DNA of 64,000 nucleotides, taken from an uncultured Candidatus Saccharibacteria bacterium (GTDB taxonomy: Bacteria > Patescibacteriota > Minisyncoccia > Phycocordibacterales > XYD1-FULL-46-19). This document shows, in pieces, positions 1 to 58,777 of this stretch (position 1 is the stretch's first letter; every line of letters starts with the position of its first letter). The translations under genes were made by a program, and so were the position numbers. The notes beneath the pieces were generated by a model, which worked only from the letters and a program-made list of their open reading frames with translations, did no database searches and had not been told where the DNA came from. The stretch is taken from assembly GCA_964639285.1 (NCBI GenBank), contig CAZXCI010000001.1:42343-106342 (forward strand), in the 5' to 3' direction.

Positions 1-45
1 AAAATTGCCTTGAAAATAAACCAAATTTTCAGTAACGTATAATTA

Positions 46-8781: not shown

Positions 8782-8783
8782 CG

Positions 8784-9893: not shown

Positions 9894-10537
9894 TTTTTAA
9901 TTTTTTCAGAGGGATAATTAAGTCGATTTACTATCAAATTTTTCGATACAAGAGACATCCTCGTCGATATCGTTATCTTTTTGATTTAATCAAAGATATA
10001 AAACCCAGGAATATCTTAGAGATTGGGGTTTGGAATGGCCGACGGGGAGTTGAGATGATAAGGTTGGCTCAAAAATTTCAATCTGAGCCGATTAATTATT
10101 TTGGGGCCGATCTTTTTGAGAAGATGAACGAAAAGATGCTAGTTGATGAATTTTCTAAAATGCCACCCTCAGAAGAAGAGGTTAAAAATCGACTTGATAA
10201 AACGGGGGCTAAAATAACTTTAATTAAGGGTAATACCACGGAGAGTCTGCCGAGAAATTTTGATCTATTGCCGCCAATGGACTTTGTTTTTATTGATGGG
10301 GGACATGCCGTTGAAACTATCACTAACGATTGGTTTTATGTTAGCCAATTATTGAGTGATAAAGGAGTTGTCGTTTTTGATGATTATTATCCAGACCGAG
10401 ACGATGTTGGAGCTAAGAAAGTTGTTGAAAACATTAATTTAGATAAATATCAAGTCAAAATTTTACCCATCCAAGACGTTTTCAAAAAGACGGAGGGGTT
10501 ATTAAAGATTAATTTTGTTGAAGTAAGAAAGAAATAA
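9884..10537 (+). CDS. Class I SAM-dependent methyltransferase-like (Methyltransf_24/CmcI-like)
   Basis: LEIGVWNGRRG and FVFIDGGHAVETITNDW resemble the macrocin/CmcI O-methyltransferase fold. Confidence 0.45.
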   Translation: MFMIFNFFRGIIKSIYYQIFRYKRHPRRYRYLFDLIKDIKPRNILEIGVWNGRRGVEMIRLAQKFQSEPINYFGADLFEKMNEKMLVDEFSKMPPSEEEVKNRLDKTGAKITLIKGNTTESLPRNFDLLPPMDFVFIDGGHAVETITNDWFYVSQLLSDKGVVVFDDYYPDRDDVGAKKVVENINLDKYQVKILPIQDVFKKTEGLLKINFVEVRKK

Positions 10538-11899
10538 TTGAACATGAAGACCATTTTAATCAGTAGTTTCCATAGCTTAATTTCTAGAAATATTCTGAAT
10601 GCGGGAGTTTTGCCCCTTCTTTTGCGGGAGGGGATAAGGGTTGTTTTACTGGTTCCTCAAAGTAAAATAGAGTATTTCCAAAAAAGTTTCGATTATGAGG
10701 GGGTTGAGGTTGTCGGCATTAATGTCCCAGAGAAACCTTTTGAGGGGCCATTATTTTTCCTTTCTCTCAGTTTGGTTGGCGTAAATAATCAGTTGGTTTG
10801 GGAGTGGAAGACGAGGGGGAGCTATCTTAAGTATTATATAGCTAATAGTCTAAATATCCTTTTTCGGCATTTTTTTGTTTTTCATCGATTTTTGCGTTTT
10901 TTTGCTAAATTTTATCTACGAAACAATATCTTTGAACCTACCTTTTCCCAGTATCAACCGGATTTAGTTTGTGCTACTGATATCTTTGGCCGAGAGGACC
11001 GGTCTCTCCTTATTGAGGCCAAACGGAGAAAGATAAAGACAGTGGGGCTAGTTCGCTCTTGGGATAATGCGACAACCAAGGGGGTTTTGTTGTCTGAGCC
11101 AGATTTTATTGTAACTCCCAACGGTGTTCTTCGAGACGAATTAATTTCTATCCATCAGGTTCAGCCTGGCAAGATTAAGGTTGCTGGGATTCCTCATTAT
11201 GATCAAATTTTGTCTGGGTGCTCTGTTTCGCGAGAAGATTTTTTTGCTGAGATGGGTTTAGATATAAAGAAGAAAACAATCCTCTTTGCTCCTGGTGGCA
11301 AAATTTTGTATAAACATGACAAGGAAATTCTTGCAGACTTAGAGGAATATCTCACTAATAGAGATTTTTGTTATCCTGTTCAGTTTTTAGTGAGACTTCC
11401 TCCTGGCGACAGGGTTGATATCTCGGGGGTAGTAAATAACCACAACTTTATAATTGATGATCCTGGGACTGATGCTAATAATCGCAAAAAAGAGAGGGAG
11501 ATGACCGAGAAAGATAATCAACGCTTAAATTGTTCTCTTTATTACAGTGATATCGTTTTGACCTTGATTTCTACTATGGTTATCGATGGCGTATCTTTTA
11601 ATAAGCCAGTTGTAGTTTGGGGCTTTGAACCGGCGGTTGGTCTTTCTGATCCTATAAAAAAGTTTACTAAATATGCCCACTTCAAAAAATTGATTGAAAC
11701 AGGACTAGTGACAGTCGCTTATTCTAGGGAAGAATTCCTTAAACAAATAAATGCTTTTTTAGAGAATCCTGACGTCAATAAGGATGACCGCCAAAAAATT
11801 CTTGATGCCTATACTTATAAACTTGATGGTCATTCCGCAGAACGGGTGTCCCAAATTATTTTGAATTTATTGCAGAACGATGTCGGGCTTACTAAGTAA
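10538..11899 (+). CDS. Putative GT-B glycosyl/glycerophosphotransferase (TagB/TagF-like) or sialyltransferase-like protein
   Basis: 453 aa. The AGIPHYDQI segment resembles the TagF-family GxPxxD region. Placed immediately upstream of the HAD-NeuA-NeuB module. Assignment is inferential. Confidence 0.3.
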   Translation: MNMKTILISSFHSLISRNILNAGVLPLLLREGIRVVLLVPQSKIEYFQKSFDYEGVEVVGINVPEKPFEGPLFFLSLSLVGVNNQLVWEWKTRGSYLKYYIANSLNILFRHFFVFHRFLRFFAKFYLRNNIFEPTFSQYQPDLVCATDIFGREDRSLLIEAKRRKIKTVGLVRSWDNATTKGVLLSEPDFIVTPNGVLRDELISIHQVQPGKIKVAGIPHYDQILSGCSVSREDFFAEMGLDIKKKTILFAPGGKILYKHDKEILADLEEYLTNRDFCYPVQFLVRLPPGDRVDISGVVNNHNFIIDDPGTDANNRKKEREMTEKDNQRLNCSLYYSDIVLTLISTMVIDGVSFNKPVVVWGFEPAVGLSDPIKKFTKYAHFKKLIETGLVTVAYSREEFLKQINAFLENPDVNKDDRQKILDAYTYKLDGHSAERVSQIILNLLQNDVGLTK

Positions 11900-12587
11900 A
11901 AATTTTGTGGCGAAAGCGAAGATTATTGTTTTTGACTTTGATGGTGTTTTTGTGCTTGATTCTGACGCTGTCTTTAAAAAAGAAGCTTGGAGCCGGGTGC
12001 TTCAACCCTGGGTTGGTCAATATCAAGTTTTTCTTGAGGAGGGGAATCGTCTTTATGGCTCTGGTAAACCGGGAGGAAGGAGAGAAATACTTCGTTATAT
12101 TCTTAGAAATCTTGGGCAATCTAGCCAGATGATTTCTGTCTTGGAGGAAAAAATTGTTCAAGAATTTGATAAATATGTGAATGAAAAGATATTAGACGCT
12201 GGGTTAGCGGAGGGGGCAAGGGAAATGCTACAAATATTATTTAACCGCAATATAAAGTTGTATCTTAATTCTGGGACAGAAACATCGGCTTTAGGTCGCG
12301 TTGTTCAAGGTCTTAAAATTAACCACTTTTTTTCTGGGGTTCTTGGTTCGACAAAAGATCCTTATGGTGGAAGTAAGATAGAAAATTTGGAATACATTGC
12401 CGCTCGCGAAAGAGTTAAGCCCGAGGCTGTTCTTTTTATTGGTGATCAGGATTCTGATTATCAGGCCGCTTTGGGTTTCAAATGTCAATTTGTTGGCTTT
12501 GCTAATAGGTGGAATGGTTGGGAGAGGAAAAGTGTTCCTTTCCCTGTCGTAGCTAAATTATCGGCTGTCCCTAAACTTATTATTTAG
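11880..12587 (+). CDS. HAD-superfamily hydrolase (possible nonulosonate-9-P or sugar phosphatase)
   Basis: HAD motif I VFDFDGVFV, C-terminal GDQDSDY (motif IV-like). Confidence 0.7.
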   Translation: MSGLLSKNFVAKAKIIVFDFDGVFVLDSDAVFKKEAWSRVLQPWVGQYQVFLEEGNRLYGSGKPGGRREILRYILRNLGQSSQMISVLEEKIVQEFDKYVNEKILDAGLAEGAREMLQILFNRNIKLYLNSGTETSALGRVVQGLKINHFFSGVLGSTKDPYGGSKIENLEYIAARERVKPEAVLFIGDQDSDYQAALGFKCQFVGFANRWNGWERKSVPFPVVAKLSAVPKLII

Positions 12588-12628
12588 GAAGAGATTTTGA
12601 CTCTAGTAACGTTTGGTGTTAGAGTAAA

Positions 12629-13336
12629 ATGACATTTGCCGAAAATATGGTTAAGAATAGCTATACTATTTTAGCGTTGATTCCTGCTCGGGGTGGGAGT
12701 AAGGGCATACCTCGTAAAAATATCAAAGAACTGGCGGGGAAGCCGTTGATTGCTCATAATATTGAAGCGGCTAAAAATTCTAAGTATATCCAAGGTGTTT
12801 ACGTATCGACGGACGATCTTGAGATTTCTAGGATTAGTCAAGAATTTGGAGCAATAGCAATTGACCGCCCGGCAGAAATGGCAACAGATCAAGCTCCTAG
12901 CGAGTTAGCCCTATTTCATTTTGCCGATAATGTTCATTTTGATGTTCTTGTTTTTTTACAATGCACTTCACCTCTGACTAGATCAGAAGATATTGACGGG
13001 GCAGTGGAGAAGTTTTTGTCTGGCCATGATTCAGTGTTGTCAGTTTGCGAGGATCATGGAGGGTTCTTATGCGGAGGTTTTACTTGGAATGAGAATGGAG
13101 AACCATTTGGTTATGATTATAAAAATCGTCCACGCCGTCAGGATGTGGGTAAAAAATATCGCGAAAACGGTGCTATTTATGTGATGAGTCGTGAAGGTCT
13201 ATTGAAGCACAGGAATCGACTTCATGGAAAAATTGGTTTATATATTATGCCTCGTCACCGTTCTTTTGAGATTGATGAACCTGGAGATTTTGAAATCGTT
13301 GAAGTTTTTATAAAAAATTCTCAAAGATTACTGTAA
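12629..13336 (+). CDS. neuA: Acylneuraminate (nonulosonate) cytidylyltransferase, CMP-sialic acid synthetase family
   Basis: N-terminal ALIPARGGSKGIPRKNIKELAGKPLIAHNIEAA is the canonical CMP-NeuAc/CMP-Pse/Leg synthetase signature. Confidence 0.8.
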   Translation: MTFAENMVKNSYTILALIPARGGSKGIPRKNIKELAGKPLIAHNIEAAKNSKYIQGVYVSTDDLEISRISQEFGAIAIDRPAEMATDQAPSELALFHFADNVHFDVLVFLQCTSPLTRSEDIDGAVEKFLSGHDSVLSVCEDHGGFLCGGFTWNENGEPFGYDYKNRPRRQDVGKKYRENGAIYVMSREGLLKHRNRLHGKIGLYIMPRHRSFEIDEPGDFEIVEVFIKNSQRLL

Positions 13337-13376
13337 AAGGATTGAATTTAAAATATTAGCCAAATTAAATAATAAT

Positions 13377-14240
13377 ATGAAAAAACCGGTCATTATTGCT
13401 GAAATTGGCTGTAATCATAAAGGTGATTTACAGATTGCCAAACAGCTTATAACCATCGCCAAAGAATTTTGTGGGGCTGATGTCGTAAAATTTCAAAAAA
13501 GAACCCCCAAAGAACTTTTAACAAAAGAAGAATATAATACACCTCATCCCGTACCAGAAAATTCTTATGGTCCAACTTATGGCTGTCATAGAGAATTTTT
13601 AGAATTTAGTATTGCTCAACATCAGAAGCTCAAAAAATTTTGTGAGAAATTGGGTGTTGTTTATTCTACTTCTATTTGGGATATGACTTCAACAAAAGAA
13701 ATTGTCGCTTTGAAACCAAAACTAATAAAAATACCATCAGCTTGTAACTTAAACTTTGAAATGCTTGGCTATCTTTGTGATAAATATAAAGGGGAGATTC
13801 ACTTATCGTTGGGGATGACCACTAAAAGAGAGGAGGAGAAAATAGTCTCTTTTTTTGAAAAAAGAAGGCGGGCCAAAGACTTAGTTATCTATAGTTGCAC
13901 TTCTGGCTACCCTGTTTCTTTTGAGGACGTTGCTTTATTAGAGATTTCTAGATTGAGAAAAAAATTTGGGAAACGAGTTAAATCGGTCGGCTTTTCCGGC
14001 CATCACCTTGGCATCGCCGTCGATGTTGCAGCTATGACTTTGGGGGCTTCTCATATTGAGAGGCACTTTACTCTTGATCGAGCATGGAAGGGAACTGATC
14101 ATGCCGCAAGCCTTGAACCTGGTGGTCTTAGGAAGCTCTGTCGGGACGTAGCGAATGTCGCTCTTTCCTTGGATTACAAGAAGGAGGAAATTCTCGATGT
14201 CGAAAAAGTTCAGAGGAAGAAGCTGAAGAGGTTAAATTAA
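13377..14240 (+). CDS. neuB: N-acetylneuraminate/nonulosonate synthase (NeuB family) lacking C-terminal SAF domain
   Basis: IIAEIGCNHKGDLQIAKQLITIAKEFCGADVVKFQK matches the NeuB TIM-barrel N-terminus. Only 287 aa, so no antifreeze-like SAF domain. Confidence 0.7.
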   Translation: MKKPVIIAEIGCNHKGDLQIAKQLITIAKEFCGADVVKFQKRTPKELLTKEEYNTPHPVPENSYGPTYGCHREFLEFSIAQHQKLKKFCEKLGVVYSTSIWDMTSTKEIVALKPKLIKIPSACNLNFEMLGYLCDKYKGEIHLSLGMTTKREEEKIVSFFEKRRRAKDLVIYSCTSGYPVSFEDVALLEISRLRKKFGKRVKSVGFSGHHLGIAVDVAAMTLGASHIERHFTLDRAWKGTDHAASLEPGGLRKLCRDVANVALSLDYKKEEILDVEKVQRKKLKRLN

Positions 14241-14250
14241 ATTTGTAAAA

Positions 14251-15885
14251 ATGGATCAGAAGTATCTTTTTAAGGGCAATATTTCTTTCTATGGCTATAT
14301 GGGGAAAAAACTCCCTGATTTTGTTTACAAGAAGACAGAGGGAACATCCAAGGTGTTTGTTCGGGAAGACGAGAATTTTTCCTTAAAGGTAAATAGCGGC
14401 AATGTTCATGTCGTCGGTTATGGGAATCTCCTAGAAATGAGAGAAAAACAAGCCGATGTCATTTTTCTTGATCATCGGGCCACCAAGGTTTTACTTGCCA
14501 AATTTCCTGTTACTTCGCATTATTTATTATTAAGGCTGGTTCCACGCTGGAGCTGGCTAATTGCTATCCCTGGCCTAATTAGACGAGTTTTGATAGGTTT
14601 GGTTAAAATTGAGGGAATAGTAAAACTTCCTGCTGACGGCCAACAACAGCGCTGGCTGGTTATCAAGCATCTTTTGTCTCGTTCTTTGCAAACTCGTTAT
14701 TCAATTTCGAGCGAGGTTGGTATACAGGGGCTATTAGACTATCTTAATCAAGCTGGGATTAAATATGTGATCTTAAGGTTTTATGAAAAATTACCAGCGC
14801 TCAATCGAATTGGTGGCGATATCGATATTTTGGTTTCTGACGAAGATGAGGAGAAAATGAGGGAATTTCTTCGGGCCCATCCTGGGACAATCGGAGTAGA
14901 CGTTTGGACTCCCTCAAGAACAAGTCACAATAGCATTACTTATTATCCGCCCCCGCTTGCTCGACAAATTATCGCAAGTGCTATCGGGGGTCCAGCTAAC
15001 TCAAAAGTTCCAGCTCCCAAAGAGGCATTTCTATCTTTTGCTTATCATGCCTTATATCATAAGGGCTGTCTTGCTGGGGTGCCAACAAATTTATCTGGCC
15101 TTGAAGTTAATAAATATCCGGAAAATGATTACACTGGTGTCTTGAAAAAAATGGCAGAAGATTTAAAGATTGATATTGATATAAACATGGAAGATTTGGA
15201 CAATTATCTTCGTTCGGTTGGCTGGCAGCCAAAGTTTGATACTTTAGCTAAAATTGCCCCCTGGAACAAATGGGTTAAAAAACGTTTTTTCTCAATGGCC
15301 GCGGTAAATGAAATTGGCCTAGGAGTTTTAATTATTAAAAATAAAGCCTTTGAGCTGGGGGTGGTCGATCAAATCTTAGAAGAAATAGTCACTCTAGGGG
15401 AATTTAAAATTATCAAGACTAAGAGATTTAATAAAGAAGAAGCTAGTCATGTGGCGAATCAGTTAAGAGGGGGAGTTTGGGACGACGTATCTGGGGCGCA
15501 GGTTCAATATTTCCCAGCTATGGCGGTAGTTATTATGGATATTCACTTTGCCCGTTCTTCGAAAGCGAGAGCTGTTCAAGGTGGTCTCCATAGGCGAATT
15601 CGTGAGCTAAAGGCTGGTTTGAGGAAAAAATTTGATAAGGAAAAAATTAGCCTGATTCATGCCACTGATTTTACTTATGAGGCTTGGGAGTATATTGATG
15701 ATTGTTTCCCAGACGAGAGGGAATTGATAAAACAAGAGATAGAAGAGATTTATCAAAATATTCCAATTTCTTGGAAGGACAGGATTGAGCTTAAAATTTT
15801 TTCCTTGCCGAGCTTAACTTACCATTATCTTTCTCGGTTAAAGAAGGATGCCTTAGGTAAACTAGTCCAAGTTTTGGTAAACTAG
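14251..15885 (+). CDS. Hypothetical protein (glycan-locus associated)
   Basis: 544-aa ORF with coding-like composition and no recognisable motif. GGDIDILVSDEDE is only weakly NTase-like. Confidence 0.4.
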   Translation: MDQKYLFKGNISFYGYMGKKLPDFVYKKTEGTSKVFVREDENFSLKVNSGNVHVVGYGNLLEMREKQADVIFLDHRATKVLLAKFPVTSHYLLLRLVPRWSWLIAIPGLIRRVLIGLVKIEGIVKLPADGQQQRWLVIKHLLSRSLQTRYSISSEVGIQGLLDYLNQAGIKYVILRFYEKLPALNRIGGDIDILVSDEDEEKMREFLRAHPGTIGVDVWTPSRTSHNSITYYPPPLARQIIASAIGGPANSKVPAPKEAFLSFAYHALYHKGCLAGVPTNLSGLEVNKYPENDYTGVLKKMAEDLKIDIDINMEDLDNYLRSVGWQPKFDTLAKIAPWNKWVKKRFFSMAAVNEIGLGVLIIKNKAFELGVVDQILEEIVTLGEFKIIKTKRFNKEEASHVANQLRGGVWDDVSGAQVQYFPAMAVVIMDIHFARSSKARAVQGGLHRRIRELKAGLRKKFDKEKISLIHATDFTYEAWEYIDDCFPDERELIKQEIEEIYQNIPISWKDRIELKIFSLPSLTYHYLSRLKKDALGKLVQVLVN

Positions 15886-17138
15886 GCTTTGGCTTTTATA
15901 AATAAGAATAACATAAAAACTAGGCTGAATAGTCTCGAACCGAGTTCGGATAAAATTGCCCCCATAATCCCATAAGTAGGAGTTAGGGCCAGAGTTAGGG
16001 TTAGTTTGACGATTGAGGAAGAAAAAGTGTAAGCATAGAGTTTCTTTGTGTGAGCCTGGGCACCGAAGACTGTGCCTAGGATCTTTTTTGGGAAAAAGAG
16101 GAGACTTAGGGCGAAAATCTGTGAATAAAAGATGGCATTTAGGTATTGTGGAAAAAAGATTTTGAATATATAAGGTGCGATAAAGAAATAAACAATGATG
16201 ATGACAATTAGTCCAAAGAAGATTTTTATTATTTTTTGGGACAATGTTTGTCTAATCTCGCCAAAACTTTTTTGGGCAAACTTAGGGAAAGCCAGTGTCG
16301 GGATATTTTCCAGTATTAGTTGGATTTGGTTTGGGAAGGCTTTAGCAAAAGCAAAAGTAGCAATGGCGGCAGCTCCTGTGAAATTCCAAAGTAGGATATT
16401 GTCTAGGGTATCAACAATCGTACTAACTACGCTTAAGAAACTTAAATGAGACCCGTAGGTTAGAGTCTTGGGGTCTTGTTTGTCGTTGTCTAGATACCTT
16501 TTGTAGACAAGTTGGAAGGCGATAAAGCGGGTTAAGGTGTAAGAAACAAAATAGGCTAGCAGGATTAGGGCTAAGTTTCTTGTGATGAAAATTGTTAGGG
16601 CAATTAAAATTGCAGCAGTTGCCTGAACTCCAATCTCATAAAATATCGAAATCTTGAAAAGTTTTTTGCCTGTTAGGATAGAATTAAAGATCCCTAGGGT
16701 GTCAACGAAGGGGAGAAAAAACGAAGCGAGGAAAAAAGAAATGGCTAACTCTGGCTGACTGTTGAAAAAATAATAAATTGCGACACTCAAACTGGCAATA
16801 CCCCCAATGGTTCCCCAGAGAATTTTCATTCTTAAAACTTGGAAAATTGTTCCTTCAAAACCTCTTGCGATAGCCCGGCTAACAGCCTGGCCCATTCCTG
16901 GTAATGTGGGGATTGTGAGAATTGCAAAGATTGAAAAAAAGTATTTATACTTACCGTACAATTCAGGGGAGACAAAGTTGGCGAAAGCCAGGCTTAGCCC
17001 GAAAGCGATTCCTGCCGATAGTATTTTTTTAAATGATAGCCAAAAATTACCAGAAGCAAAATACACCATATCAGTCTTAGTGTAACGCTCGGTCCAGCGG
17101 AGAAGATGGTAGGAGTGGTTTCTTAGCTTATTTATCAT
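15882..17138 (-). CDS. Polysaccharide biosynthesis protein / Wzx-like oligosaccharide flippase
   Basis: 418 aa and about 12 predicted TM helices. Located in the glycan locus and convergent with upstream genes. Confidence 0.65.
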   Translation of the reverse strand: MINKLRNHSYHLLRWTERYTKTDMVYFASGNFWLSFKKILSAGIAFGLSLAFANFVSPELYGKYKYFFSIFAILTIPTLPGMGQAVSRAIARGFEGTIFQVLRMKILWGTIGGIASLSVAIYYFFNSQPELAISFFLASFFLPFVDTLGIFNSILTGKKLFKISIFYEIGVQATAAILIALTIFITRNLALILLAYFVSYTLTRFIAFQLVYKRYLDNDKQDPKTLTYGSHLSFLSVVSTIVDTLDNILLWNFTGAAAIATFAFAKAFPNQIQLILENIPTLAFPKFAQKSFGEIRQTLSQKIIKIFFGLIVIIIVYFFIAPYIFKIFFPQYLNAIFYSQIFALSLLFFPKKILGTVFGAQAHTKKLYAYTFSSSIVKLTLTLALTPTYGIMGAILSELGSRLFSLVFMLFLFIKAKA

Positions 17139-17305
17139 TAGATTATATATTAGCTTAAAATCAGGGTTTTTTCTAGTTTTGGAAATTTTTTCATGCTATA
17201 CTAAAGATTATTAACTTAGGCAAGCTATCAATGATTAAGAATTTGATTAAGGGTGCAATCCCTTGTCTTTTCTTTGTGAAATCGCGAGACAGTAAAGTTA
17301 TTTAA

Positions 17306-18217
17306 ATGAAATATACTTTTGGTCAGATAATCAAGATTAGTGAGGCGGTTAGAAAAATTAATCGAATATTTCATGATTATGAAGCCAATTCCTACGAGCA
17401 AAGACATCCTGAGATCTATAAGCGGGAGATAAAAAATTGGCAAGATAATTATTATCAATATATTAAACCGATTCAGGATCGAAAGAGGACAGGTATAACA
17501 ATCCTTGACGTCGGGACAGGAAACGGTTTTGTTATTGAATCCTTTGCTGACTTTCTGACTACTGACGACCGGGTAATCTTCTCTGACATATCATCATCGA
17601 TGTTGAAAGTGGTTAGAAAAAAGTTTGAGAAGAACGGGTTTAAAAAAGAATATTTACTTAGCGATGCTTCGTCTCTTGACCTGCCACAGGGAAGTGTTGA
17701 CATTGTGACTATGAACTCAGTTTTGCATCATTTGCCAGACGTGAAGAAGCCCCTTCTTCTTTTTGGGCGTTTCCTAAGTAAAAATGGTGCTGTTATCATT
17801 AGGCATGAGCCAAATAGGCTTTTTGCAGAAAACATCGTCCTCAGGTTTGTCTTCGGGATTATTAATTTTCTGAAACAGGGCAGGCAAAAGGAATCTTTGC
17901 CAATTAAAGTAAAATTACTGGAGAAATTTAGTAGAGAAGGATTTGAATTCGAGGATAATTTTGACTATCAAGATCTTATCTCCATTGTTGACGTTAGATC
18001 GCCGACAGCCCGTGGAGAATTGGATAAGAATAAAGGGTTTGATCCTTTTTTCCTTGGGAGGGAGTATTTTGCGGGCTATCGTGTTTATATTAATACCTAT
18101 AATTTCCTAGGCAAAGTTGATGAGAAAAGTAGCCTAGGGAGAAGAACTCTCTCTTCGATCCTAAAATCATTGTTTCCTTCTTGTGGCTACCTTTTTGAGT
18201 TAATCGCCATTAAGTAA
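17306..18217 (+). CDS. Class I SAM-dependent methyltransferase
   Basis: Motif I ILDVGTGNGFV, motif II-like DIVTMNSVLHHL. Confidence 0.65.
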   Translation: MKYTFGQIIKISEAVRKINRIFHDYEANSYEQRHPEIYKREIKNWQDNYYQYIKPIQDRKRTGITILDVGTGNGFVIESFADFLTTDDRVIFSDISSSMLKVVRKKFEKNGFKKEYLLSDASSLDLPQGSVDIVTMNSVLHHLPDVKKPLLLFGRFLSKNGAVIIRHEPNRLFAENIVLRFVFGIINFLKQGRQKESLPIKVKLLEKFSREGFEFEDNFDYQDLISIVDVRSPTARGELDKNKGFDPFFLGREYFAGYRVYINTYNFLGKVDEKSSLGRRTLSSILKSLFPSCGYLFELIAIK

Positions 18218-18220
18218 TGA

Positions 18221-18230
18221 GGGGGGGGGA
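18221..18230. repeat. Homopolymeric G10 tract in intergenic region
   Basis: gaggggggggggatttt directly after the stop of the 17306-18217 gene and about 95 bp upstream of the FkbM methyltransferase start. Unusual in an AT-rich genome. Confidence 0.9.
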
Positions 18231-18325
18231 TTTTAGATTTATTTTTAATCTTATTAGCCGCTAGGTTTTATATGGGCCCCCAGAGTCTTTGCTTTTTCTA
18301 GTTTTAGGTCTTTTTTTGTGTTATA

Positions 18326-19072
18326 TTGCAAGCGCTTATCTTAGCTAAATCCATGTTGATTAAAAAGACAATTAAAAGGATAATTCCCCAACATTTTCAT
18401 TTTTTCTTGGCTGAGGCTAAGAATTTGCTCACTAATGGTTATTGTCATTGTCATTACTCTCAGTTTGGTGAAGACTTGATAATTAAGAGTATCACAAAGA
18501 ATAAAAATAAAGGTTTTTATGTCGATGTTGGGGCTCATCATCCTTTTCGTTATTCTAACACTCGTCTTTTGTATAAGCGGGGTTGGCGGGGAATTAATGT
18601 CGAACCAAATCACTACACGATAAAATTATTTAGAATCTTTCGACGTCGAGACATTAATTTAGAAATTGGTGTTGGGTCTGAAGATGGAGTGGCCGATTAT
18701 TATTATTTTTCTGACCCGGCTTATAATACTTTTTCTCGAGAGCAGATGGAGGAATCCCTCAAGAATAATAAATGGCTAAAATTAAAAAAGAAAGTCAATT
18801 TATCCATTTCTACCTTAAAAACGATCCTTACTAAATATCTTCCTGCAGGGGTTCCTGTTGATTTCTTGAATGTGGACGTAGAAGGATTGGATATGGTGGT
18901 CCTTCTGTCTAATGACTGGGAAAAATTCAAGCCCAGAATTATTTCTGTTGAATCTCCAAATTTTGATTTGGATAGACCTAATGAAGATGAGACTTATAAT
19001 TATTTAAAAAACCTGGGATACAAACTCGAGGCGGTGACTGGCTGCAGTCTAATTTTTGTGCTATATTCCTAG
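18326..19072 (+). CDS. FkbM-family methyltransferase
   Basis: SQFGEDLIIK...GFYVDVGAHHPFRYSNTRLLYKRGWRGINVEPN is the diagnostic FkbM-domain pattern. Confidence 0.7.
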   Translation: MQALILAKSMLIKKTIKRIIPQHFHFFLAEAKNLLTNGYCHCHYSQFGEDLIIKSITKNKNKGFYVDVGAHHPFRYSNTRLLYKRGWRGINVEPNHYTIKLFRIFRRRDINLEIGVGSEDGVADYYYFSDPAYNTFSREQMEESLKNNKWLKLKKKVNLSISTLKTILTKYLPAGVPVDFLNVDVEGLDMVVLLSNDWEKFKPRIISVESPNFDLDRPNEDETYNYLKNLGYKLEAVTGCSLIFVLYS

Positions 19073-19074
19073 AC

Positions 19075-21129
19075 ATGAATACTAATAAAATTTTACATTG
19101 GGTCACTCTGGTGGGGCTCTTTGCTGTCCCCTTTATCCCGCTTATTGTTACATCCAGCGCTTTTTTTCCTTTTATTACTGGGAAGAACTTTGCTTTTCGT
19201 GTGATCATCGAAATAGTCTTTGCCTCTTGGTTGATACTCGCCTTGCGAGACAGAAGCTATTGGCCCGAGAAATCATATCTCCTTTATGCTGTTTTAGCTT
19301 TAGTAGTAATTACTGGAATTGCGACTTTCTTTGGCGAGAATCCTTATCGTAGTTTCTGGTCTAATTATGAACGAATGGGTGGTTACGTTAGCCTTCTCCA
19401 TTTGGGGGCTTACTTTGTTGTTTTGACATCTCTTCTCAAAAAGAAGGCTGAATGGTTTTGGTTTGCTAATATTTCTCTTGGGGTCAACTGGCTTATTGTT
19501 TTTTACTCGCTTGGGCAATTGGCAGGAAAGACGGAGATTCATCAGGGGGGTGTTCGTCTTGACGCGACCTTAGGCAATGCGACTTATCTTGCTGTCTACG
19601 TTTTGTTTGGCATATTTATATCTCTCTATTTATTGTCTCAAGCTAAAAATATCTGGTTAAAGATTTTTTATGGACTTACCACTTTAGTTAATTTGTTTCT
19701 GCTTTATAATACTGCAACTCGAGGGACGATTCTTGGTCTTATTGCTGGCCTCTTTGTTTTTGCTGGGCTAGTCGTTCTCCGGGGAGAAAAAAGACAGAAA
19801 AAGTGGGCCGGCGGAATCGTCTTAGTTCTTGTCCTCCTCGTGGGGGGTTTTCTTTTAGCGAAAGACTCCTCTTTTGTCACTAATAGCCCTGTACTGTCTC
19901 GTTTTTCGAGTATCTCGGCGACAGAGGCGACAACCCAGTCTCGTTTTCTGATTTGGAACATGAGTTTGCAAGGATTTAAGGAGCATCCTCTGCTTGGTTG
20001 GGGGCCAGAGAATTACAGTCTGGTCTTTAGTAAGTATTATGACCCGGCCATGTGGCGACAAGAGCCATGGTTTGATCGTTCTCATAATATCTTTTTTGAT
20101 TGGCTAATTGATGCTGGCTTGCTCGGTCTGCTAGCTTATCTGTCTATCTTTCTAGTGGCCTTTTATCTTCTTTGGGCGAAGAGAGGAAAGCTTGGTTTTG
20201 GTGGGTATCTTTTTGTGGGCCTAATAGTTGCCTATCTCTTCCATAACATATTTGTCTTTGATAATTTGGTGAGCTATCTCTATTTCTTTGCTGTTGTCGC
20301 TTATGTCAATTTTTGGGTGGCAGAGGAGGGGGGAGTTCCAGCTGAATTAAAGGTAAAAACAAATTATCAAATAGATAAAAAGAAAACTTCTTCGGTGGGA
20401 AATATTTCCCTCGGTGTTAATGTTGCTTCCGGAGTAATTCTGATTATTCTGGTTGGAGTTCTTTATTACATTAATTACAAACCATGGTTGGTCTCAGTTG
20501 ATTTGATTTCAGCTATTCGTCCTAATACTAACTCAGAAAAAAGCTTTTCTATTTTTCAGGAGATTTTTGAACGGAAGACTTTTGGTTCTGGTGAAGCTCG
20601 AGAACAGTTGATCAACAAAACGATGAATATCGTTCGCGACGAGAAAATTCCTGATGAGCTTAAAATAAAATTTGTTAAATTAGTCGATGAACAAATTAAA
20701 GAACAATTGGGGCGCTTTGATGGAGATGCGAGATCCAATTTGTTTTTTGGTTCTTACTTGGCATCGACCGGGCGAGTTGATGAGGGCTTAGCTTTGTTGC
20801 AAAAGGCTCAGGCTCTCTCTCCCAAAAAGCAAGCGATTCTCTTCCAGCTGGTTTCGATTTATGTGCAAAAGCAGGATGCTACGAGTGCCGTTGCGACAGC
20901 TAAGAGTGCTTATGAGCTCGATCCGGCTTATCCCGAAGCGAGGAAGATTTACGCTATTATTCTCTTCATGACGGGTCAGACTAAATTAGGGTATGAAATT
21001 ATTGCGCCGATTAAAAATGATCCTGATTATTTTAACGATCCGCGCTTTCTCAACATCTATGAACAAATGGGTGATACAAAATCAATTCAAGAGATAAAAG
21101 ATTTGCAATTGAAAGAAGCAAAAAAATAA
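19075..21129 (+). CDS. O-antigen ligase/polymerase (Wzy_C)-like polytopic membrane protein with C-terminal TPR repeats
   Basis: About 10 TM helices in the N-terminal 400 aa and a periplasmic-loop region typical of Wzy/WaaL. C-terminal roughly 200 aa form TPR-like helical repeats (QKAQALSPKKQAILFQLVSIYVQKQD...). Confidence 0.6.
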   Translation: MNTNKILHWVTLVGLFAVPFIPLIVTSSAFFPFITGKNFAFRVIIEIVFASWLILALRDRSYWPEKSYLLYAVLALVVITGIATFFGENPYRSFWSNYERMGGYVSLLHLGAYFVVLTSLLKKKAEWFWFANISLGVNWLIVFYSLGQLAGKTEIHQGGVRLDATLGNATYLAVYVLFGIFISLYLLSQAKNIWLKIFYGLTTLVNLFLLYNTATRGTILGLIAGLFVFAGLVVLRGEKRQKKWAGGIVLVLVLLVGGFLLAKDSSFVTNSPVLSRFSSISATEATTQSRFLIWNMSLQGFKEHPLLGWGPENYSLVFSKYYDPAMWRQEPWFDRSHNIFFDWLIDAGLLGLLAYLSIFLVAFYLLWAKRGKLGFGGYLFVGLIVAYLFHNIFVFDNLVSYLYFFAVVAYVNFWVAEEGGVPAELKVKTNYQIDKKKTSSVGNISLGVNVASGVILIILVGVLYYINYKPWLVSVDLISAIRPNTNSEKSFSIFQEIFERKTFGSGEAREQLINKTMNIVRDEKIPDELKIKFVKLVDEQIKEQLGRFDGDARSNLFFGSYLASTGRVDEGLALLQKAQALSPKKQAILFQLVSIYVQKQDATSAVATAKSAYELDPAYPEARKIYAIILFMTGQTKLGYEIIAPIKNDPDYFNDPRFLNIYEQMGDTKSIQEIKDLQLKEAKK

Positions 21130-50617: not shown

Positions 50618-50690
50618 GCCGGTGTAGCTCAGTTGGTAGAGCGCCACTTTTGTAAAGTGGATGTCGTGGGTTCGATCCCTGCCACCGGCT
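50618..50690 (+). tRNA. tRNA-Thr (anticodon UGU)
   Basis: Cloverleaf. Acceptor gccggtg/caccggc. D-arm agctcagttggtagagc. Anticodon loop ttTGTaa. T-arm gtgggttcgatccctgc. Discriminator U. No encoded CCA. Confidence 0.85.
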
Positions 50691-50750: not shown

Positions 50751-51164
50751 ATGAGAAGATGTGAAAATTGTCTCAGGGAACTAACTGAAAGGCATAAAAT
50801 AAAGTTTTGTTCTAATAAATGTCAACACGATTATCAATATCACTCTTACATAAAGGAGTGGAAAAGTGGGAATGAGGGTGGAGTTAAGGGAACGATAACA
50901 AAGAATATCTCGGGGCACTTAAAAAGATATTTACTAGAGAAATACAAGGAAAAGTGTGCTAAATGTGGCTGGAACAAAAAACACCCAATTACTGGACGTG
51001 TCCCTTTGGAGGTTGATCACATCGACGGGAACTCTGACAATAATTCTGAGGAAAATTTAGTTCTTTTGTGCCCAAATTGCCATTCTCTAACTCCATATTT
51101 TCGCAATTTAAACAAAGGTAAGGGCCGAAAATGGAGGAAAAGCCTCAAGGAATATTTAGGATAA
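50751..51164 (+). CDS. HNH endonuclease
   Basis: N-terminal Cys pairs (CENC...C..C) and the HNH core EVDHIDGNSDNNSEENLVLLCPNCHS. Lies immediately 3' of a tRNA gene. Confidence 0.75.
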   Translation: MRRCENCLRELTERHKIKFCSNKCQHDYQYHSYIKEWKSGNEGGVKGTITKNISGHLKRYLLEKYKEKCAKCGWNKKHPITGRVPLEVDHIDGNSDNNSEENLVLLCPNCHSLTPYFRNLNKGKGRKWRKSLKEYLG

Positions 51165-51735: not shown

Positions 51736-52500
51736 GTGAAAGAGAAAGCAGAAAAAGGTCATCTCCATCCCTTAACCCAGATAATCAATGAAGTTGTCGA
51801 TGCTTTTCGTAATCTTGGTTTTGTCGTAGCGGAGGGTCCAGAGATTGAGGATGAATATCATAATTTTGATGCTCTCAATGTCCCGGCTGATCACCCCGCG
51901 CGTGACATGTGGGATACTTTTTGGTTAAAACCAGAAAACACAAAAAGACTTTTGCGTACCCATACCTCACCTGTCCAAGTGAGATATTTAGAGAACAATA
52001 AACCGCCCCTTCGTATTATTGTGCCAGGCAAAGTCTTTCGTTACGAAGCTACCGATGCTCGTCATGAGGCGCAATTCTTCCAGATTGAAGGTTTGCTGGT
52101 TGACAAGAAGGTTAGCGTGGCTGACATGAAAGGAAGTCTTGAATATTTTTTGCAAAAGATTTTTGGGCCAAAGGTTCAGATTCGTTTGCGCCCATCCTTT
52201 TTTCCTTTCGTTGAGCCTGGTTTTGAGGTTGATATGATTTGCCCTAAATGCATCGCCTCGCCGGAGCTTAAAGCGGAGGCGGGTAATAAATGTTCTGTCT
52301 GTGGCGGTGGAGGTTGGCTCGAGATTATGGGGGCAGGCCTTGTTCACCCTCATGTCTTCAAATCTGTCGGGCTTGACCCTAACGAGTGGCAAGGCTTTGC
52401 TTTTGGTATGGGCCCAGAACGTTTGGCCATGGTCAAGTGGGGAATAGAGGATATTCGTAATTTTTATAATGGGGATAATCGTTTTATTCAGCAATTCTAA
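51736..52500 (+). CDS. pheS: Phenylalanine--tRNA ligase alpha subunit (catalytic core only, GTG start)
   Basis: [39 protein letters not shown] (motifs 2/3 region) and the C-terminal GMGPERLAM. Confidence 0.9.
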
Positions 52501-52506
52501 TTTGTT

Positions 52507-54423
52507 ATGCTTGTTTCATATGATTGGTTACAAAAATATTTTGCTAAACCTTTGCCGAAGGCAAGTGACGTTGTCGATAAATTAATCTTTCACGCTTTTG
52601 AAGTTGAGAGTGTTGAAGAAAGATATGGTGATTTTGTTTTTGATGTGAAGGTTTTGCCCGATCGGGCCCACGATTGCCTTTGTCATTATGGTATTGCTAA
52701 AGAAATCGCAGCACTGTTTAACTTGGAGGCTAAGCCTCCAAAGGGGGAATTGGGATCAGCGAAAACACAAAAAACTAGTAGAGATCTAAAAATAAAAATA
52801 GAGGAGTCTAATCTCTGCCGACGCTATGTTGGTCGAGTGATCGAGAATATTCAAGTTAAGGGCTCTCCAGATTGGCTTAGGGTTGATCTAGAAAAATTAG
52901 AACAACGTTCTATTAGCAATATTGTCGATGCCTCTAATCACGGAATGTTTGACGTTGGTCAACCACTGCACGCTTTTGATGCTGATAAGGTTAAAGGTGG
53001 AATTATTGTTCGGCTGGCCAAGATTGGTGAAAAAATCACGACACTCGATAATCAAGAGGTTAATTTAGATGAAACAATTTTAATCATTGCTGACGACGAG
53101 GGGCCACTAGCAATCGCCGGGGTTAAGGGTGGGAAGAAGGCAGAAGTGACAAGTGAAACAAAAAATCTGATTCTTGAGTCGGCTAACTTTGATCCGGTGA
53201 ATATTCGAAAAACGGCACAAAAAATTGGGATTAAGACTGATGCTTCAAAAAGATTTGAAAATGAGATTTCGACGGAGGTTGCTGATTATGCCATGGATTT
53301 ACTCACAGAGTTAATTGTCAAAGAGGCGGGTACAAACGAGACTAAAGTTGGTGAGAAAATTGATAAATACCAGAGCAAAAATATTCCTGCTCCGGTTGAG
53401 TTTGAGGTCAGAGAATTCAAAGAGAGATTAGGTGTCGTAATCCCAACAGAAGAGTCTGTAAAAATTTTAGAAAGCTTGGGAATTAAAGTGGAACAGATCC
53501 CCGAGTCCTCGAGAATCCGAGTTATCCCGCCGGTGGAGAGAATTGACTTGGTAGCTAAAGAGAATTACGTCGAAGAAGTCGGGCGCATTTATGGTTATGA
53601 CAAGATCAAGGGTCGGATCCCTGACCACTTAGAGGCGAAGCCTCTAAGTGGGGCAGAGAAGAGATTCAATTTAGCTAATAAGATTAGAGTGATGTTAAAA
53701 GCTGAAGGCTTCACCGAAGTCTATGGCTATGCCTTTACTGGTAAAGGAGAAGTAGAATTAGCCAATCCGCTCGCCGTGGGCAAAGAATTCTTACGAACTA
53801 ATCTTATCGACTTATTGACCGAGAAACTTAAATTTAATTTATCCCATGTCTTATTTGATGACGAGGCAGTTAAAATTTTCGAAATTGGCAAAGTTTTTAC
53901 CAGCGGGGAAGAAGAAACGCGTTTGGCCTTGGGCGTTTCCTATCGCAAGAAAATTAAGGGTCAAGATGCAAGGAAGGAAGTTGAGGAAGCTTTAGAAAAA
54001 ATTGGGAAGAAAACTTCGGTAACAGGCGACGAGGTCACCGGCCTTCGAGAAATCAATTTTGATGAATTGGTAGAAGAGTCTAGCGATACTACTCCGGTCC
54101 CGCTTGAAGGTTTGGTGAATAAAAATGCCAGTTACAAAATTGTTTCGCCTTATCCTCGTATTATCCGTGATATTGCTGTTTGGGTGCCAGAAAATACCGC
54201 GGTCGAGGCGGTGATGACTACGATTAAGTCTTCGGCCGGCGACCTCTGTGTCCTTGGTCCAATCTTGTTTGACGAATTTGTTAAAGAGGAAAGAAAGTCG
54301 CTTGCCTTCCGTCTCGTCTTCCAATCTTATCAGAAAACCCTCTCTGATGATGAGGCCAATCTTGAGATGTCTAAGGTGATTGAAGCTCTCGAAAAGTGTC
54401 CTAATTTCGAAGTCCGAAAATAG
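52507..54423 (+). CDS. pheT: Phenylalanine--tRNA ligase beta subunit (shortened form)
   Basis: MLVSYDWLQKYF start. B3/B4 and B5 regions present. 638 aa versus about 800 typical. Confidence 0.85.
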   Translation: MLVSYDWLQKYFAKPLPKASDVVDKLIFHAFEVESVEERYGDFVFDVKVLPDRAHDCLCHYGIAKEIAALFNLEAKPPKGELGSAKTQKTSRDLKIKIEESNLCRRYVGRVIENIQVKGSPDWLRVDLEKLEQRSISNIVDASNHGMFDVGQPLHAFDADKVKGGIIVRLAKIGEKITTLDNQEVNLDETILIIADDEGPLAIAGVKGGKKAEVTSETKNLILESANFDPVNIRKTAQKIGIKTDASKRFENEISTEVADYAMDLLTELIVKEAGTNETKVGEKIDKYQSKNIPAPVEFEVREFKERLGVVIPTEESVKILESLGIKVEQIPESSRIRVIPPVERIDLVAKENYVEEVGRIYGYDKIKGRIPDHLEAKPLSGAEKRFNLANKIRVMLKAEGFTEVYGYAFTGKGEVELANPLAVGKEFLRTNLIDLLTEKLKFNLSHVLFDDEAVKIFEIGKVFTSGEEETRLALGVSYRKKIKGQDARKEVEEALEKIGKKTSVTGDEVTGLREINFDELVEESSDTTPVPLEGLVNKNASYKIVSPYPRIIRDIAVWVPENTAVEAVMTTIKSSAGDLCVLGPILFDEFVKEERKSLAFRLVFQSYQKTLSDDEANLEMSKVIEALEKCPNFEVRK

Positions 54424-56756: not shown

Positions 56757-58529
56757 TTATTTCCTAGCTTTAATTTCGGAAATAAGGGAGGTGATAAAAT
56801 CAGCGAGAGATGTTTTGATTCCTTTTTCTTCGACTCCACGTTTTTCAATCGTGATCATTTTTTCTTCCATTTCTTTGTCGCCTAAGACAATGAGGTAGGG
56901 GATTTTTTGCGTTTTGGCATTTCTAATTTTCTTGCCCAGAGTCTCGTTTGATTCGTCCAATTCTACTCTGATATCATTTTCCTTAAGTTCAGCGAGAACT
57001 TCTTCGGCATAAGCTATTTGTTTGTCAGAAATTGGCAGAATCTTGATCTGTACGGGTGCGAGCCAAGTGGGGAAATTACCAGCGTAATGTTCTATGAGAA
57101 AACCGGTTAAGCGTTCATGGGTCCCAAGTGGCGCGCGATGGATGCAGAGAGGGGTTTCTAATTTCCCTTTTTCGTCAGTGTAAGCCAGGTCGAAGCGTTT
57201 GGGGACAGCGAAATCTACTTGATTAGTTGCTAAGGTAAATTCACGACCAATAGCACTCCAAACTTGTACGTCGATCTTGGGGCCATAGAAGGCCGCTTCG
57301 TTGGGTATCTCGACATAAGGTATCTTAGCTTCGATCAAAGTATTGCGAACCATCTTCTCAGTTTCTAGCCAAAGCTCTGGTTCGTTGACATATTTCTCGC
57401 CTAATTTTTTAGGATCATGAGTAGAGAGTCGCATTACGTATTTATCAATCCCGAAGATTTTAAAATATTTTAGATACATGTCGTTGACAGCTTTGAACTC
57501 ACTAGCGAATTGTTCTCGGGTGCAATAGATATGAGCATCGTTCATCTGCATCATGCGTACGCGCATTAACCCAAATAGTTCACCTGATTTTTCGTGGCGA
57601 TAACAAGTGCCATATTCGGCTAAACGGAGAGGGAGTTCCTTATAGCTTCGTGTTTTATGGGCAAAGATCTTGTGATGGTGGGGGCAATTCATTGCTTTGA
57701 GATAATATTTTACCCCTTCATACTCCATGGGCGGGAACATACTATCTTGGTAATAAGGTAGATGGCCACTCCGAAGATACATTGATTCTTTAGCCAAATG
57801 GGGAGTGCGAACACGAAGATAGCCTCCTTCGGCCTCTGTCTCTTTGGCCAATTTTTCTAATTCATCAATCATTATTGTCCCGTTGGGCAACCAGAGAGGA
57901 AGACCTGCGCCGACATCATCATCGAAGGTGAAGATCTCTAATTCTTTCCCCAGTTTTCGGTGATCTCTTTTTTCTGCTTCAGCCATCATATCTAAGTAGT
58001 CATCAAGTTCGCCCTTGTTGGCAAAGGCTACGCCATAAATACGAGTGAGCATTTTATTTTTCTCGTCTCCTCGCCAATAAGCGCCAGCAACACGGGTAAG
58101 ACGGAAGGCGTCACGGGCGATCTCGTTGGTGCTCGCGACGTGAGGCCCGGCACAGAGGTCAACTAGATCATGGGAGCGATAGATGGAGATATTTTCGCCC
58201 TTCTCGTCTAACTCATTAATTAATTCTAATTTATATGGCTCGCTAGCAAAAATTTCCCGCGCTTGGTCGGGGCTAATTTCTTCGCGAATAAAAGCAATAT
58301 TTTTTGAAACTAAGGCGCGCATCTCTTTCTCTAGGTTTAGAAGCTCATTTTCTGGCGGGATGGTTGCGCCAAAATCAAAGTCGTAATAAAAACCATTTTC
58401 AATCGTTGGGCCGATGCCAAGTTTAGCCTTAGGGTATTTTGCCTTAACAGCGATAGCTAAGAGGTGAGATAGCGAATGACGAATTTTGTCTGCACCGAGC
58501 TCGGCTGAAGTGTCTAAATCGTTTTCCAT
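56757..58529 (-). CDS. thrS: Threonine--tRNA ligase (N-terminally short form)
   Basis: THERLTGFLIEHYAGNFPTWLAPVQIKILP. Class II motifs. Anticodon-binding C-terminus. ATG at 58529 (MENDLDTSAEL) chosen, because the longer ORF would read through the leader terminator. Confidence 0.9.
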   Translation of the reverse strand: MENDLDTSAELGADKIRHSLSHLLAIAVKAKYPKAKLGIGPTIENGFYYDFDFGATIPPENELLNLEKEMRALVSKNIAFIREEISPDQAREIFASEPYKLELINELDEKGENISIYRSHDLVDLCAGPHVASTNEIARDAFRLTRVAGAYWRGDEKNKMLTRIYGVAFANKGELDDYLDMMAEAEKRDHRKLGKELEIFTFDDDVGAGLPLWLPNGTIMIDELEKLAKETEAEGGYLRVRTPHLAKESMYLRSGHLPYYQDSMFPPMEYEGVKYYLKAMNCPHHHKIFAHKTRSYKELPLRLAEYGTCYRHEKSGELFGLMRVRMMQMNDAHIYCTREQFASEFKAVNDMYLKYFKIFGIDKYVMRLSTHDPKKLGEKYVNEPELWLETEKMVRNTLIEAKIPYVEIPNEAAFYGPKIDVQVWSAIGREFTLATNQVDFAVPKRFDLAYTDEKGKLETPLCIHRAPLGTHERLTGFLIEHYAGNFPTWLAPVQIKILPISDKQIAYAEEVLAELKENDIRVELDESNETLGKKIRNAKTQKIPYLIVLGDKEMEEKMITIEKRGVEEKGIKTSLADFITSLISEIKARK

Positions 58530-58735
58530 AATAATTTTGAGTAAGTTGATAATAAAACGAGAACGCCCCGGCAAAAGCCGTTGGCTTTTGCCGGGGCGAG
58601 ATTTATTTTTTTAAAATCACGCGGTTCCACCCGGATTTGGTCTCTTTTTATTAGATTAGTCCTTCGCTGAGCTCAGGATCCCTTTTTAGGATGGCGATTG
58701 GTAGTCACCACAATTTCTAAGTAATCTAATAGTAG
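58530..58735 (-). promoter_or_regulatory. T-box riboswitch leader of thrS (promoter, specifier hairpin, T-box antiterminator, terminator)
   Basis: Minus strand, 5' to 3'. TTGACA-N17-TACTAT (plus-strand coordinates 58752-58757 / 58729-58734). Hairpin GGUGA-CUACCAA-UCGCC with Thr codon ACC+A in the loop. T-box aaauCCGGGUGGAACCGCG (plus 58620-58638). Antiterminator helices CCGGG/CCCGG and GCG/CGC flank a 7-nt UGGAACC bulge. Terminator and U-tract directly before the AUG. Confidence 0.6.
58564..58598 (-). terminator. Leader terminator hairpin of thrS T-box
   Basis: Perfect 16-bp stem cgccccggcaaaagcc-aac-ggcttttgccggggcg followed on the minus strand by uucguuuuauu. Confidence 0.6.
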
Positions 58736-58777
58736 GCCCTGTGGTTTAGTTTGTCAAATTGTTGTAATATATAAAGT

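Follow-up and report, generated by a model that had tools for sequence, protein, structure and literature searches.

A compact, probably tRNA-Thr-responsive T-box leader upstream of thrS in a genome of the candidate phyla radiation

The 248-nt gap that separates thrS (ATG at 58529) from a divergent gene encoding 249 amino acids (start at 58778) raises the question of whether the leader it contains is a T-box riboswitch and, if so, of which kind. The gap belongs to a stretch of 64,000 nucleotides of contig CAZXCI010000001.1 (assembly GCA_964639285.1, uncultured Candidatus Saccharibacteria bacterium), which was analysed at its full length and is referred to here as the window; the entire leader lies within the gap, on the minus strand. 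Judged from its sequence and from that of its relatives, the thrS leader is very probably a tRNA-Thr-responsive T-box riboswitch that acts by transcription attenuation. The original prediction, namely that of a T-box leader of thrS in a genome resembling those of the candidate phyla radiation (CPR), is borne out by the presence of the same architecture before thrS in more than 100 loci and by the nearest named threonyl-tRNA synthetase (ThrRS, the product of thrS, also ThrS below) sequences, which are those of Paceibacterota/Parcubacteria. With some reserve, we also lean towards the broader reading that a widespread CPR class of transcriptional T-boxes senses tRNA-Thr with minimal parts, that is, with a kissing hairpin set within a small junction and, for certain lineages, with a discriminator devoid of Stem III.

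By analogy with the established T-box mechanism (PMC7583486), the anticodon of an uncharged tRNA-Thr would pair with the ACC specifier of the leader in a loop-loop contact, and the free UCCA 3' end of the same tRNA would pair with UGGA, stabilising the antiterminator. With the antiterminator held in place, RNA polymerase would read into thrS; a threonyl-tRNA would be unable to dock, so that the terminator would form and transcription would stop approximately 30 nt before the start codon. The elements that would take part in these steps are the following, listed in the direction of transcription of the leader, with thrS and the tRNA gene at the end.

58729-58757, minus strand: sigma-70-type promoter, TTGACA (58757-58752), 17-nt spacer, TACTAT (58734-58729), 10/12 matches
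58716-58720, minus strand: 5' strand UUAGA of helix P1, which closes the decoding domain; pairs with UCUAA at 58655-58651
58710-58715, minus strand: joining strand J1, AAUUGU, for which the family consensus is GAUUGU; the final U is paired with A58692
58693-58709, minus strand: specifier hairpin P2, GGUGA/UCGCC with the 7-nt loop CUACCAA (58704-58698), shaped as an anticodon stem-loop
58679-58691, minus strand: hairpin P3, UCCU-AAAAA-GGGA, from folding
58660-58678, minus strand: hairpin P4, UCCU...AGGA with an 11-nt loop, from folding
58656-58659, minus strand: joining strand J4, CUAA, conserved, directly 5' of the P1 3' strand
58651-58655, minus strand: 3' strand UCUAA of P1; pairs with 58720-58716
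58636-58650, minus strand: purine-rich linker UAAAAAGAGACCAAA, with no Stem III hairpin; purines like those flanking Stem III in other members
58590-58635, minus strand: antiterminator as a whole, composed of helix A1, the bulge and helix A2
58632-58620, minus strand: T-box core GGGUGGAACCGCG, exact
58634-58630 with 58595-58591, minus strand: A1, CCGGG paired with CCCGG; covaries at 4-5 of 6 pairs in the family
58629-58623, minus strand: T-box bulge UGGAACC, 7 nt
58622-58620 with 58598-58596, minus strand: A2, GCG paired with CGC, extended by GAUUU/AAAUC
58551-58598, minus strand: intrinsic terminator, a perfect 16-bp hairpin (58598-58564) and then UUCUCGUUUU, the U-rich tract at 58563-58551
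56757-58529, minus strand: thrS, the regulated gene, 590 amino acids, with tRNA_SAD, tRNA-synt_2b and HGTP_anticodon domains
50618-50690, plus strand: tRNA-Thr(UGU) gene, discriminator U73, no encoded CCA; 3' end UCCA complementary to the UGGA of the bulge

The recurrence of this plan in front of thrS was established along two routes. A scan of metagenomes with the pattern ATTGT-N5-YYACCA-N60-90-GGTGGAACCRCG matched at least 120 loci. Of the 124 leaders listed, 115 are immediately followed by thrS, the remainder being truncated contigs or two false matches, and 69 of the 74 metagenome ThrS open reading frames (ORFs) were nearest to CPR-labelled genomes. Other leaders were retrieved independently of the pattern. 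Among 80 thrS loci of reference genomes, L001 (Saccharibacteria), L002 (uncultured) and L040 (Paceibacterota) were found to share the leader plan with a different hairpin stem, and protein similarity led to the leaders of L202 (Paceibacterota), L204 (Vogelbacteria), L045 (Patescibacteria) and L046 (Moraniibacteriota), the last of which is divergent, with GAGUGGAACC. All eight pattern-independent leaders, namely that of the window and the seven just named, have ACC with a purine after it, together with UGGA. The nearest leader-bearing relative is L202, the ThrS of which is 81% identical to that of the window: promoter, P1 and T-box are kept, and P2 reads GGGAG/UUCCC instead of GGUGA/UCGCC, so that compensation has occurred within a short evolutionary distance.

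The named homologues nearest to the window ThrS are those of Paceibacterota (81%) and Parcubacteria GW2011 (74%), followed by Vogelbacteria, Kaiserbacteria, Nomurabacteria and Minisyncoccia. No leader was found upstream of thrS in L203 (Parcubacteria GW2011, 74% ThrS identity), L205 (Kaiserbacteria, 67%) and L206 (Nomurabacteria, 67%), so that the leader is often gained or lost within CPR, with a patchy occurrence among close relatives. No other T-box was found elsewhere in the window nor, beyond the thrS ones, in 1.5 Mb of loci. The pheS and pheT genes of the window (51736-54423) have no T-box-like sequence upstream, which indicates that not all aminoacyl-tRNA synthetase (aaRS) genes of the source organism carry such leaders.

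Three loci depart from the simple order of leader and thrS. The L140 contig contains two complete Thr-type leaders, at 562-690 and 1485-1649, of which the second precedes thrS and the first, equipped with its own terminator, lies ahead of an unknown ORF of 167 aa, unmatched in Pfam, which would be the sole non-thrS target seen among the leaders examined. In the Paceibacterota locus (L202:132-698) the leader precedes a MazG-like ORF, with thrS 2 nt further on, and in the Vogelbacteria locus (L204:72-603) leader and thrS are separated by a 79-aa ORF of unknown function.

Covariation was determined on two alignments, one produced by MAFFT from 97 leaders without fitting to a structure and covering 19 pairs (P1, P2, A1 and A2), the other model-based, on 101 leaders, with Stem III included. 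Standard pairs occupied 95.7% and 95.5% of the cells, respectively, as opposed to 33-42% in both alignments when the 3' partner was slid by 1-3 columns as a control. Two-sided changes amounted to 408 in the MAFFT alignment, against 24-70 in the slid controls, and to 590 in the model-based one. None of 500 shuffles reached the observed value, on four of five measures with the former alignment and on all five with the latter. The aligned 3' ends had been chosen by the best A1/A2 pairing, which favours A1 and A2 and leaves P2 unbiased and P1 nearly so; compensatory changes were found in P1, P2, Stem III, A1 and A2 alike, and RNAalifold, applied to the MAFFT alignment, recovered P2 and A1 independently. 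A covariance model built from 96 family members, with the window left out, detected the leader at 58587-58723 of the minus strand over its full length (model positions 1-139) with a score of 80.8 bits (E = 4.7e-15). The next best match in the 64 kb had an E value of 0.48, making the leader the sole significant one. Canonical T-boxes of Chloroflexi and Bacillota scored 23-36 bits on this CPR model, by virtue of the shared 3' half.

The 3' half of the leader contains the elements most readily recognised as those of a T-box, and here the prediction was accurate throughout: the T-box core, the CCGGG/CCCGG and GCG/CGC helices on the two sides of UGGAACC, and the 16-bp terminator with its U tract, mutually exclusive with the antiterminator, were all found at the positions proposed. 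With respect to the conserved T-box sequence AGGGUGGNACCGCG, the window has CGGGUGGAACCGCG at 58633-58620, which fits 13 of 14 positions, and the antiterminator of the family consists of a 6-bp A1, the bulge UGGAACC and an A2 of the form RCG...CGY. The 3' strands of A2 and A1 also form the 5' arm of the terminator. Both folds were obtained, with energies of −13.9 kcal/mol for the antiterminator and −31.6 kcal/mol for the terminator, so that termination would be the default state. The leader region folds more stably than shuffled sequences (z = −4.7), and the minimum free energy (MFE) structure of its first 135 nt, which end before the 3' arm of the terminator, is the family structure, that is, decoding domain plus antiterminator. 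A 10-bp helix, UAUUAGAUUA/UAAUCUAAUA, that appears in a longer MFE fold was discarded: its 5' arm falls inside the −10 box or upstream of it, and the helix used by the family is the neighbouring P1 of 5 bp.

Between the decoding domain and the antiterminator the window retains the purine linker alone, the Stem III positions being deletions in its alignment to the covariance model. The family linker, also rich in purines, contains ...AAUGAGNG or AAAGAGA... In T-boxes at large, Stem III and its flanking RRRxG...AA purines belong to the discriminator. Of 101 members, 23-29 do without Stem III, the window among them, and approximately 72-78 possess it, with covariation at all four of its pairs (model-based alignment); for 25 of 99 leaders, folding predicted a linker devoid of hairpins.

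A terminator, scored as a complement to the A2 and A1 3' strands at 8 or more of 9 bases and then 5 or more T in 10 nt, was found in 92 of 104 leaders. These features bear on whether the leader could instead be a translational T-box like those of the ultrashort ileS class, with a hairpin that sequesters the ribosome-binding site, a proposal that draws on the association made in the literature between short or ultrashort Stem I elements and translational T-boxes. The U tract that follows the hairpin, in the window as in those 92 family members, argues otherwise, as does the position of the terminator stem, which ends 35 nt ahead of the ATG at 58529 and excludes the region just before the start codon; furthermore, the leaders of L202, L204 and L140 precede other ORFs or sit at variable distances from thrS. 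A translational mode of action is thus judged highly improbable.

At the other end of the leader, the TTGACA-N17-TACTAT promoter that had been placed upstream of the specifier hairpin is indeed present, and it sets the start of the transcript at approximately 58722-58720, which corresponds to the first bases of P1. The promoter of the L202 relative is identical, and in the family promoter-like hexamers occur at 6-9 nt (−10-like) and 28-33 nt (−35-like) upstream of P1. Because of this fixed distance, the RNA is expected to begin at P1, with no long Stem I possible upstream. In the window the divergent gene has its start codon (58778) only 57 nt away from P1, and the promoter lies in this interval.

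What remains for recognition of the anticodon is a decoding domain closed by P1, which is fully paired (5/5) beside UAA in 87 of 110 family leaders and covaries at all 5 pairs. The specifier ACC (58702-58700) is followed by a purine, A58699, and matches the threonine of the thrS gene downstream. It is displayed in the terminal loop of P2, a hairpin of 5-6 bp with no elbow platform. The P2 stem is formed in 118 of the 120 listed pattern matches by dozens of different stem sequences, the search having left 5 bases free on each side of the loop; it is 96% paired and covaries at all 5 pairs, and the loop, YYACCAN in general, is CUACCAA in 78 of 99 leaders. On its 5' side, the last U of J1 pairs with the A that follows P2 (U14-A32, a UA pair in 92 of 97 sequences and UG in 5 of 97); J1 itself reads GAUCGU or GAUUGC in leaders retrieved without the pattern, which set ATTGT elsewhere. 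The P3-P4 interval forms two hairpins in 62 of 99 family leaders (mean z of −1.9 relative to shuffles), and three members are without either P3 or P4. A GNRA loop was found in P4 in only 17 of 62 cases, and no tetraloop contact is claimed. J4, at a position left free by the search pattern, is CUAA in 88 and CCAA in 7 of 99 leaders. Its near-invariant UAA (58656-58658) faces GAU (AAU in the window, 58713-58715) beside P1, an arrangement that we take to resemble the UAA/GAN internal-loop motif, an adenine stack that serves tertiary contacts. With this organisation, the predicted hairpin GGUGA[CUACCAA]UCGCC, presenting ACC and then A, stands at 58709-58693 but is not free-standing, being enclosed in the P1-closed junction beside P3 and P4; likewise, the ultrashort Stem I that had been proposed holds as a short hairpin with a terminal-loop specifier but is embedded in a four-helix junction.

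A 12-codon ORF starting with GUG (VVTTNRHPKKGS) overlaps P2 and was considered for leader-peptide attenuation; it was rejected because the changes seen in the stem are those of a compensating RNA helix rather than synonymous ones.

The shape of P2 invites a comparison with the thrS operator of E. coli, where a hairpin bearing the anticodon binds ThrRS next to the ribosome-binding site. An autoregulatory operator of this type, bound by the ThrRS protein, would account for a hairpin shaped as an anticodon arm (5-6 bp stem, 7-nt loop, a pyrimidine before the triplet and an A after it) upstream of thrS. The loop, however, bears the codon ACC and not a threonine anticodon (NGU), so that it complements tRNA-Thr rather than mimicking it; the hairpin lies approximately 165 nt from the start codon, a distance at which it would not directly block ribosome binding; and the UGGAACC bulge and the antiterminator/terminator pair would be left unexplained. 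This possibility is deemed extremely remote.

The interpretation of the leader as a T-box sensing tRNA-Thr has to be weighed against a set of observations that count against it. In the 120 listed metagenome matches ACC, UGGA, ATTGT and GGTGGAACC were preset by the search pattern. The anticodon of tRNA-Thr(UGU) fits ACC at two of three positions, with a C-U mismatch at the third, the perfect partner of ACC being tRNA-Thr(GGU), for which no gene was found in the window nor in approximately 145 loci. The bulge base N is A in every family member, which provides no variation to set beside the discriminator. Where the steric sensor has been described as a G-U wobble, the window has a G-C pair, at the A2 position adjoining the bulge; in the family, 45-47 members have G-C there and 35-38 have G-U. 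Furthermore, the elbow-binding Stem I platform, of which the CPR leader is devoid, has been described as needed by transcriptional T-boxes, and Stem III, missing in the window, has been called 'indispensable' (PMC7583486). Finally, the Rfam T-box model RF00230, in a permissive search, scored 15.9 bits against a gathering cut-off of 93, aligning only the T-box/antiterminator piece at model positions 183-216.

As for the tRNA, the expectation that the bulge A predicts a discriminator U, to be found on tRNA-Thr(UGU), agrees with the U73 of this tRNA, the product of the sole tRNA-Thr gene available; the support is confined to the discriminator, the anticodon agreeing with ACC at only two positions of three. 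The Rfam check, set in advance as a match of RF00230 above threshold, formally failed. At the gathering threshold Rfam gave no T-box match in the window, and the leaders of L001, L002 and L040 likewise fell below the RF00230 gathering score. Nothing 5' of model position 183 was aligned, namely no long Stem I and no kink-turn (K-turn), internal specifier loop or distal platform; RF00230 models a long Stem I that is absent from the thrS leaders of CPR and is, for this reason, an unsuitable yardstick for them. Other weak Rfam matches, to miRNA and sRNA models, all fell on the terminator hairpin and were dismissed as due to chance.

The missing parts could also be read as signs of decay, the leader being a T-box relic no longer able to sense tRNA, with an attenuator that is constitutive or otherwise controlled, for example by a protein or by nucleoside triphosphate levels. 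There is no elbow platform, no F-box pseudoknot and, as far as the window is concerned, no Stem III, all of which have been described as essential, and the occurrence of the leader is patchy among close relatives (L203, L205 and L206 being without it). However, strong purifying selection and compensatory changes are evident on every helix, across ThrS proteins that are only 45-60% identical, ACC-A and UGGAACC are retained in the independently retrieved members, and the joining strands GAUUGU and CUAA are near-invariant, which decay would not preserve. Loss of sensing is therefore considered very unlikely, and a functional T-box is the preferred interpretation.

With regard to the surroundings of these elements, Pfam detects no N-terminal TGS domain in the 590-aa ThrS of the window, and several similar ThrS genes, on Bacteroidota-labelled loci, start approximately 60 codons earlier. 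Downstream of the tRNA-Thr(UGU) gene, at a distance of 60 nt, comes an HNH endonuclease ORF (50751-51164). The GC content of the window is 37-39% over positions 1-20000 and 42-48% over 20000-64000, so that the former may be a compositionally distinct gene cluster.

The current picture of T-boxes has been drawn from Firmicutes and Actinobacteria, and in it co-transcriptional switches need the elbow grip for fast binding, a very short Stem I being considered peculiar to slow translational ileS switches. If functional, the CPR leaders would contradict both the need of co-transcriptional T-boxes for an elbow platform and the indispensability of Stem III. Since its ultrashort specifier in a terminal loop is coupled to a terminator, and a quarter of its members are devoid of Stem III, the family would offer natural test cases for minimal co-transcriptional tRNA sensing in what is already a model system for RNA recognising RNA, as well as a compact scaffold of approximately 135 nt for engineering. 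If the interpretation is true, T-box regulation extends to Patescibacteria, with thrS as maybe its only target there. It would also be one of a small number of concrete mechanisms of gene regulation that are legible in CPR genomes, and one missed by standard Rfam annotation. No report of a T-box in CPR/Patescibacteria was found in the literature searched, subscription journals being outside its coverage, and the short-Stem-I model of TBDB was applied only to Actinobacteria and to truncated-Stem-I T-boxes already detected by class I (RF00230).

Several known systems provide terms of comparison. With the canonical transcriptional T-box (RF00230; B. subtilis tyrS/thrS, glyQS) the CPR leader shares the T-box sequence GGGUGGNACCGCG and the 7-nt bulge between A1 and A2, a UGGN complementary to the tRNA's NCCA terminus, a specifier codon in agreement with the regulated aaRS and with a purine after it, an antiterminator that cannot coexist with an intrinsic terminator and, in approximately 75% of the family, a purine-flanked Stem III, which the window subgroup, unlike the canonical T-box, does not have. 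The long Stem I, the K-turn, the internal specifier loop and the AG bulge/distal-loop elbow platform of the canonical T-box are all absent from the family, in which the codon is placed in a terminal hairpin loop and the decoding hairpin, with two small hairpins, is enclosed by P1. The F-box CCGUUA was found in none of 110 family leaders, as opposed to 5 of 6 canonical thrS T-boxes of Chloroflexi and Bacillaceae; in T-boxes generally, Stem II and the IIA/B pseudoknot to which it belongs are optional, glycine T-boxes being devoid of them.

The canonical thrS T-boxes of Chloroflexi (L008, L010, L011, L020 and L022) precede ThrS genes whose products are approximately 59% identical to that of the window, and have the same ACC and UGGAACC. 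Their 3' half, AAAUCGGGUGGAACCGCGUGA...CUCGCCCCG, is near-identical to that of the window, and for this reason the two sets together provide a new data point on the origin of T-boxes. They differ in having a long Stem I, an F-box and Stem III, two of them score above the RF00230 cut-off, and on the CPR model they reach 24-33 bits. The same five loci and L076 have thrS closely preceded by a tRNA-Val(GAC) gene; in L011 and L020, which are full-length T-box matches, that gene ends 10-21 nt before the canonical T-box, which suggests a conserved tRNA-Val/T-box/thrS arrangement in Chloroflexi.

The ultrashort Stem I translational ileS T-boxes of Actinobacteria were reportedly described by Sherwood, Grundy and Henkin in 2015, and structures exist of the ileS leaders of M. 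tuberculosis and N. farcinica. In this class the specifier lies in a terminal loop, control is translational, through a Shine-Dalgarno sequestrator, 'all' members regulate ileS, and an S-turn Stem II with a IIA/B pseudoknot supports the codon-anticodon helix. Compared by description, the CPR leader resembles it in the terminal-loop specifier, the very short Stem I, the lack of an elbow platform and the same discriminator core, and differs from it in the terminator platform, in thrS and ACC as gene and codon, in its CPR hosts, and in having two plain P1-closed hairpins after the specifier and no F-box. An anticodon-arm-shaped hairpin in a thrS leader is also what likens it to the E. coli operator, from which it is set apart by a loop that has the codon, combined with the T-box bulge and a terminator. 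Thus, although it lacks several of the features by which membership of either described class is recognised, the CPR family is one that works like a T-box, with a discriminator core shared with both.

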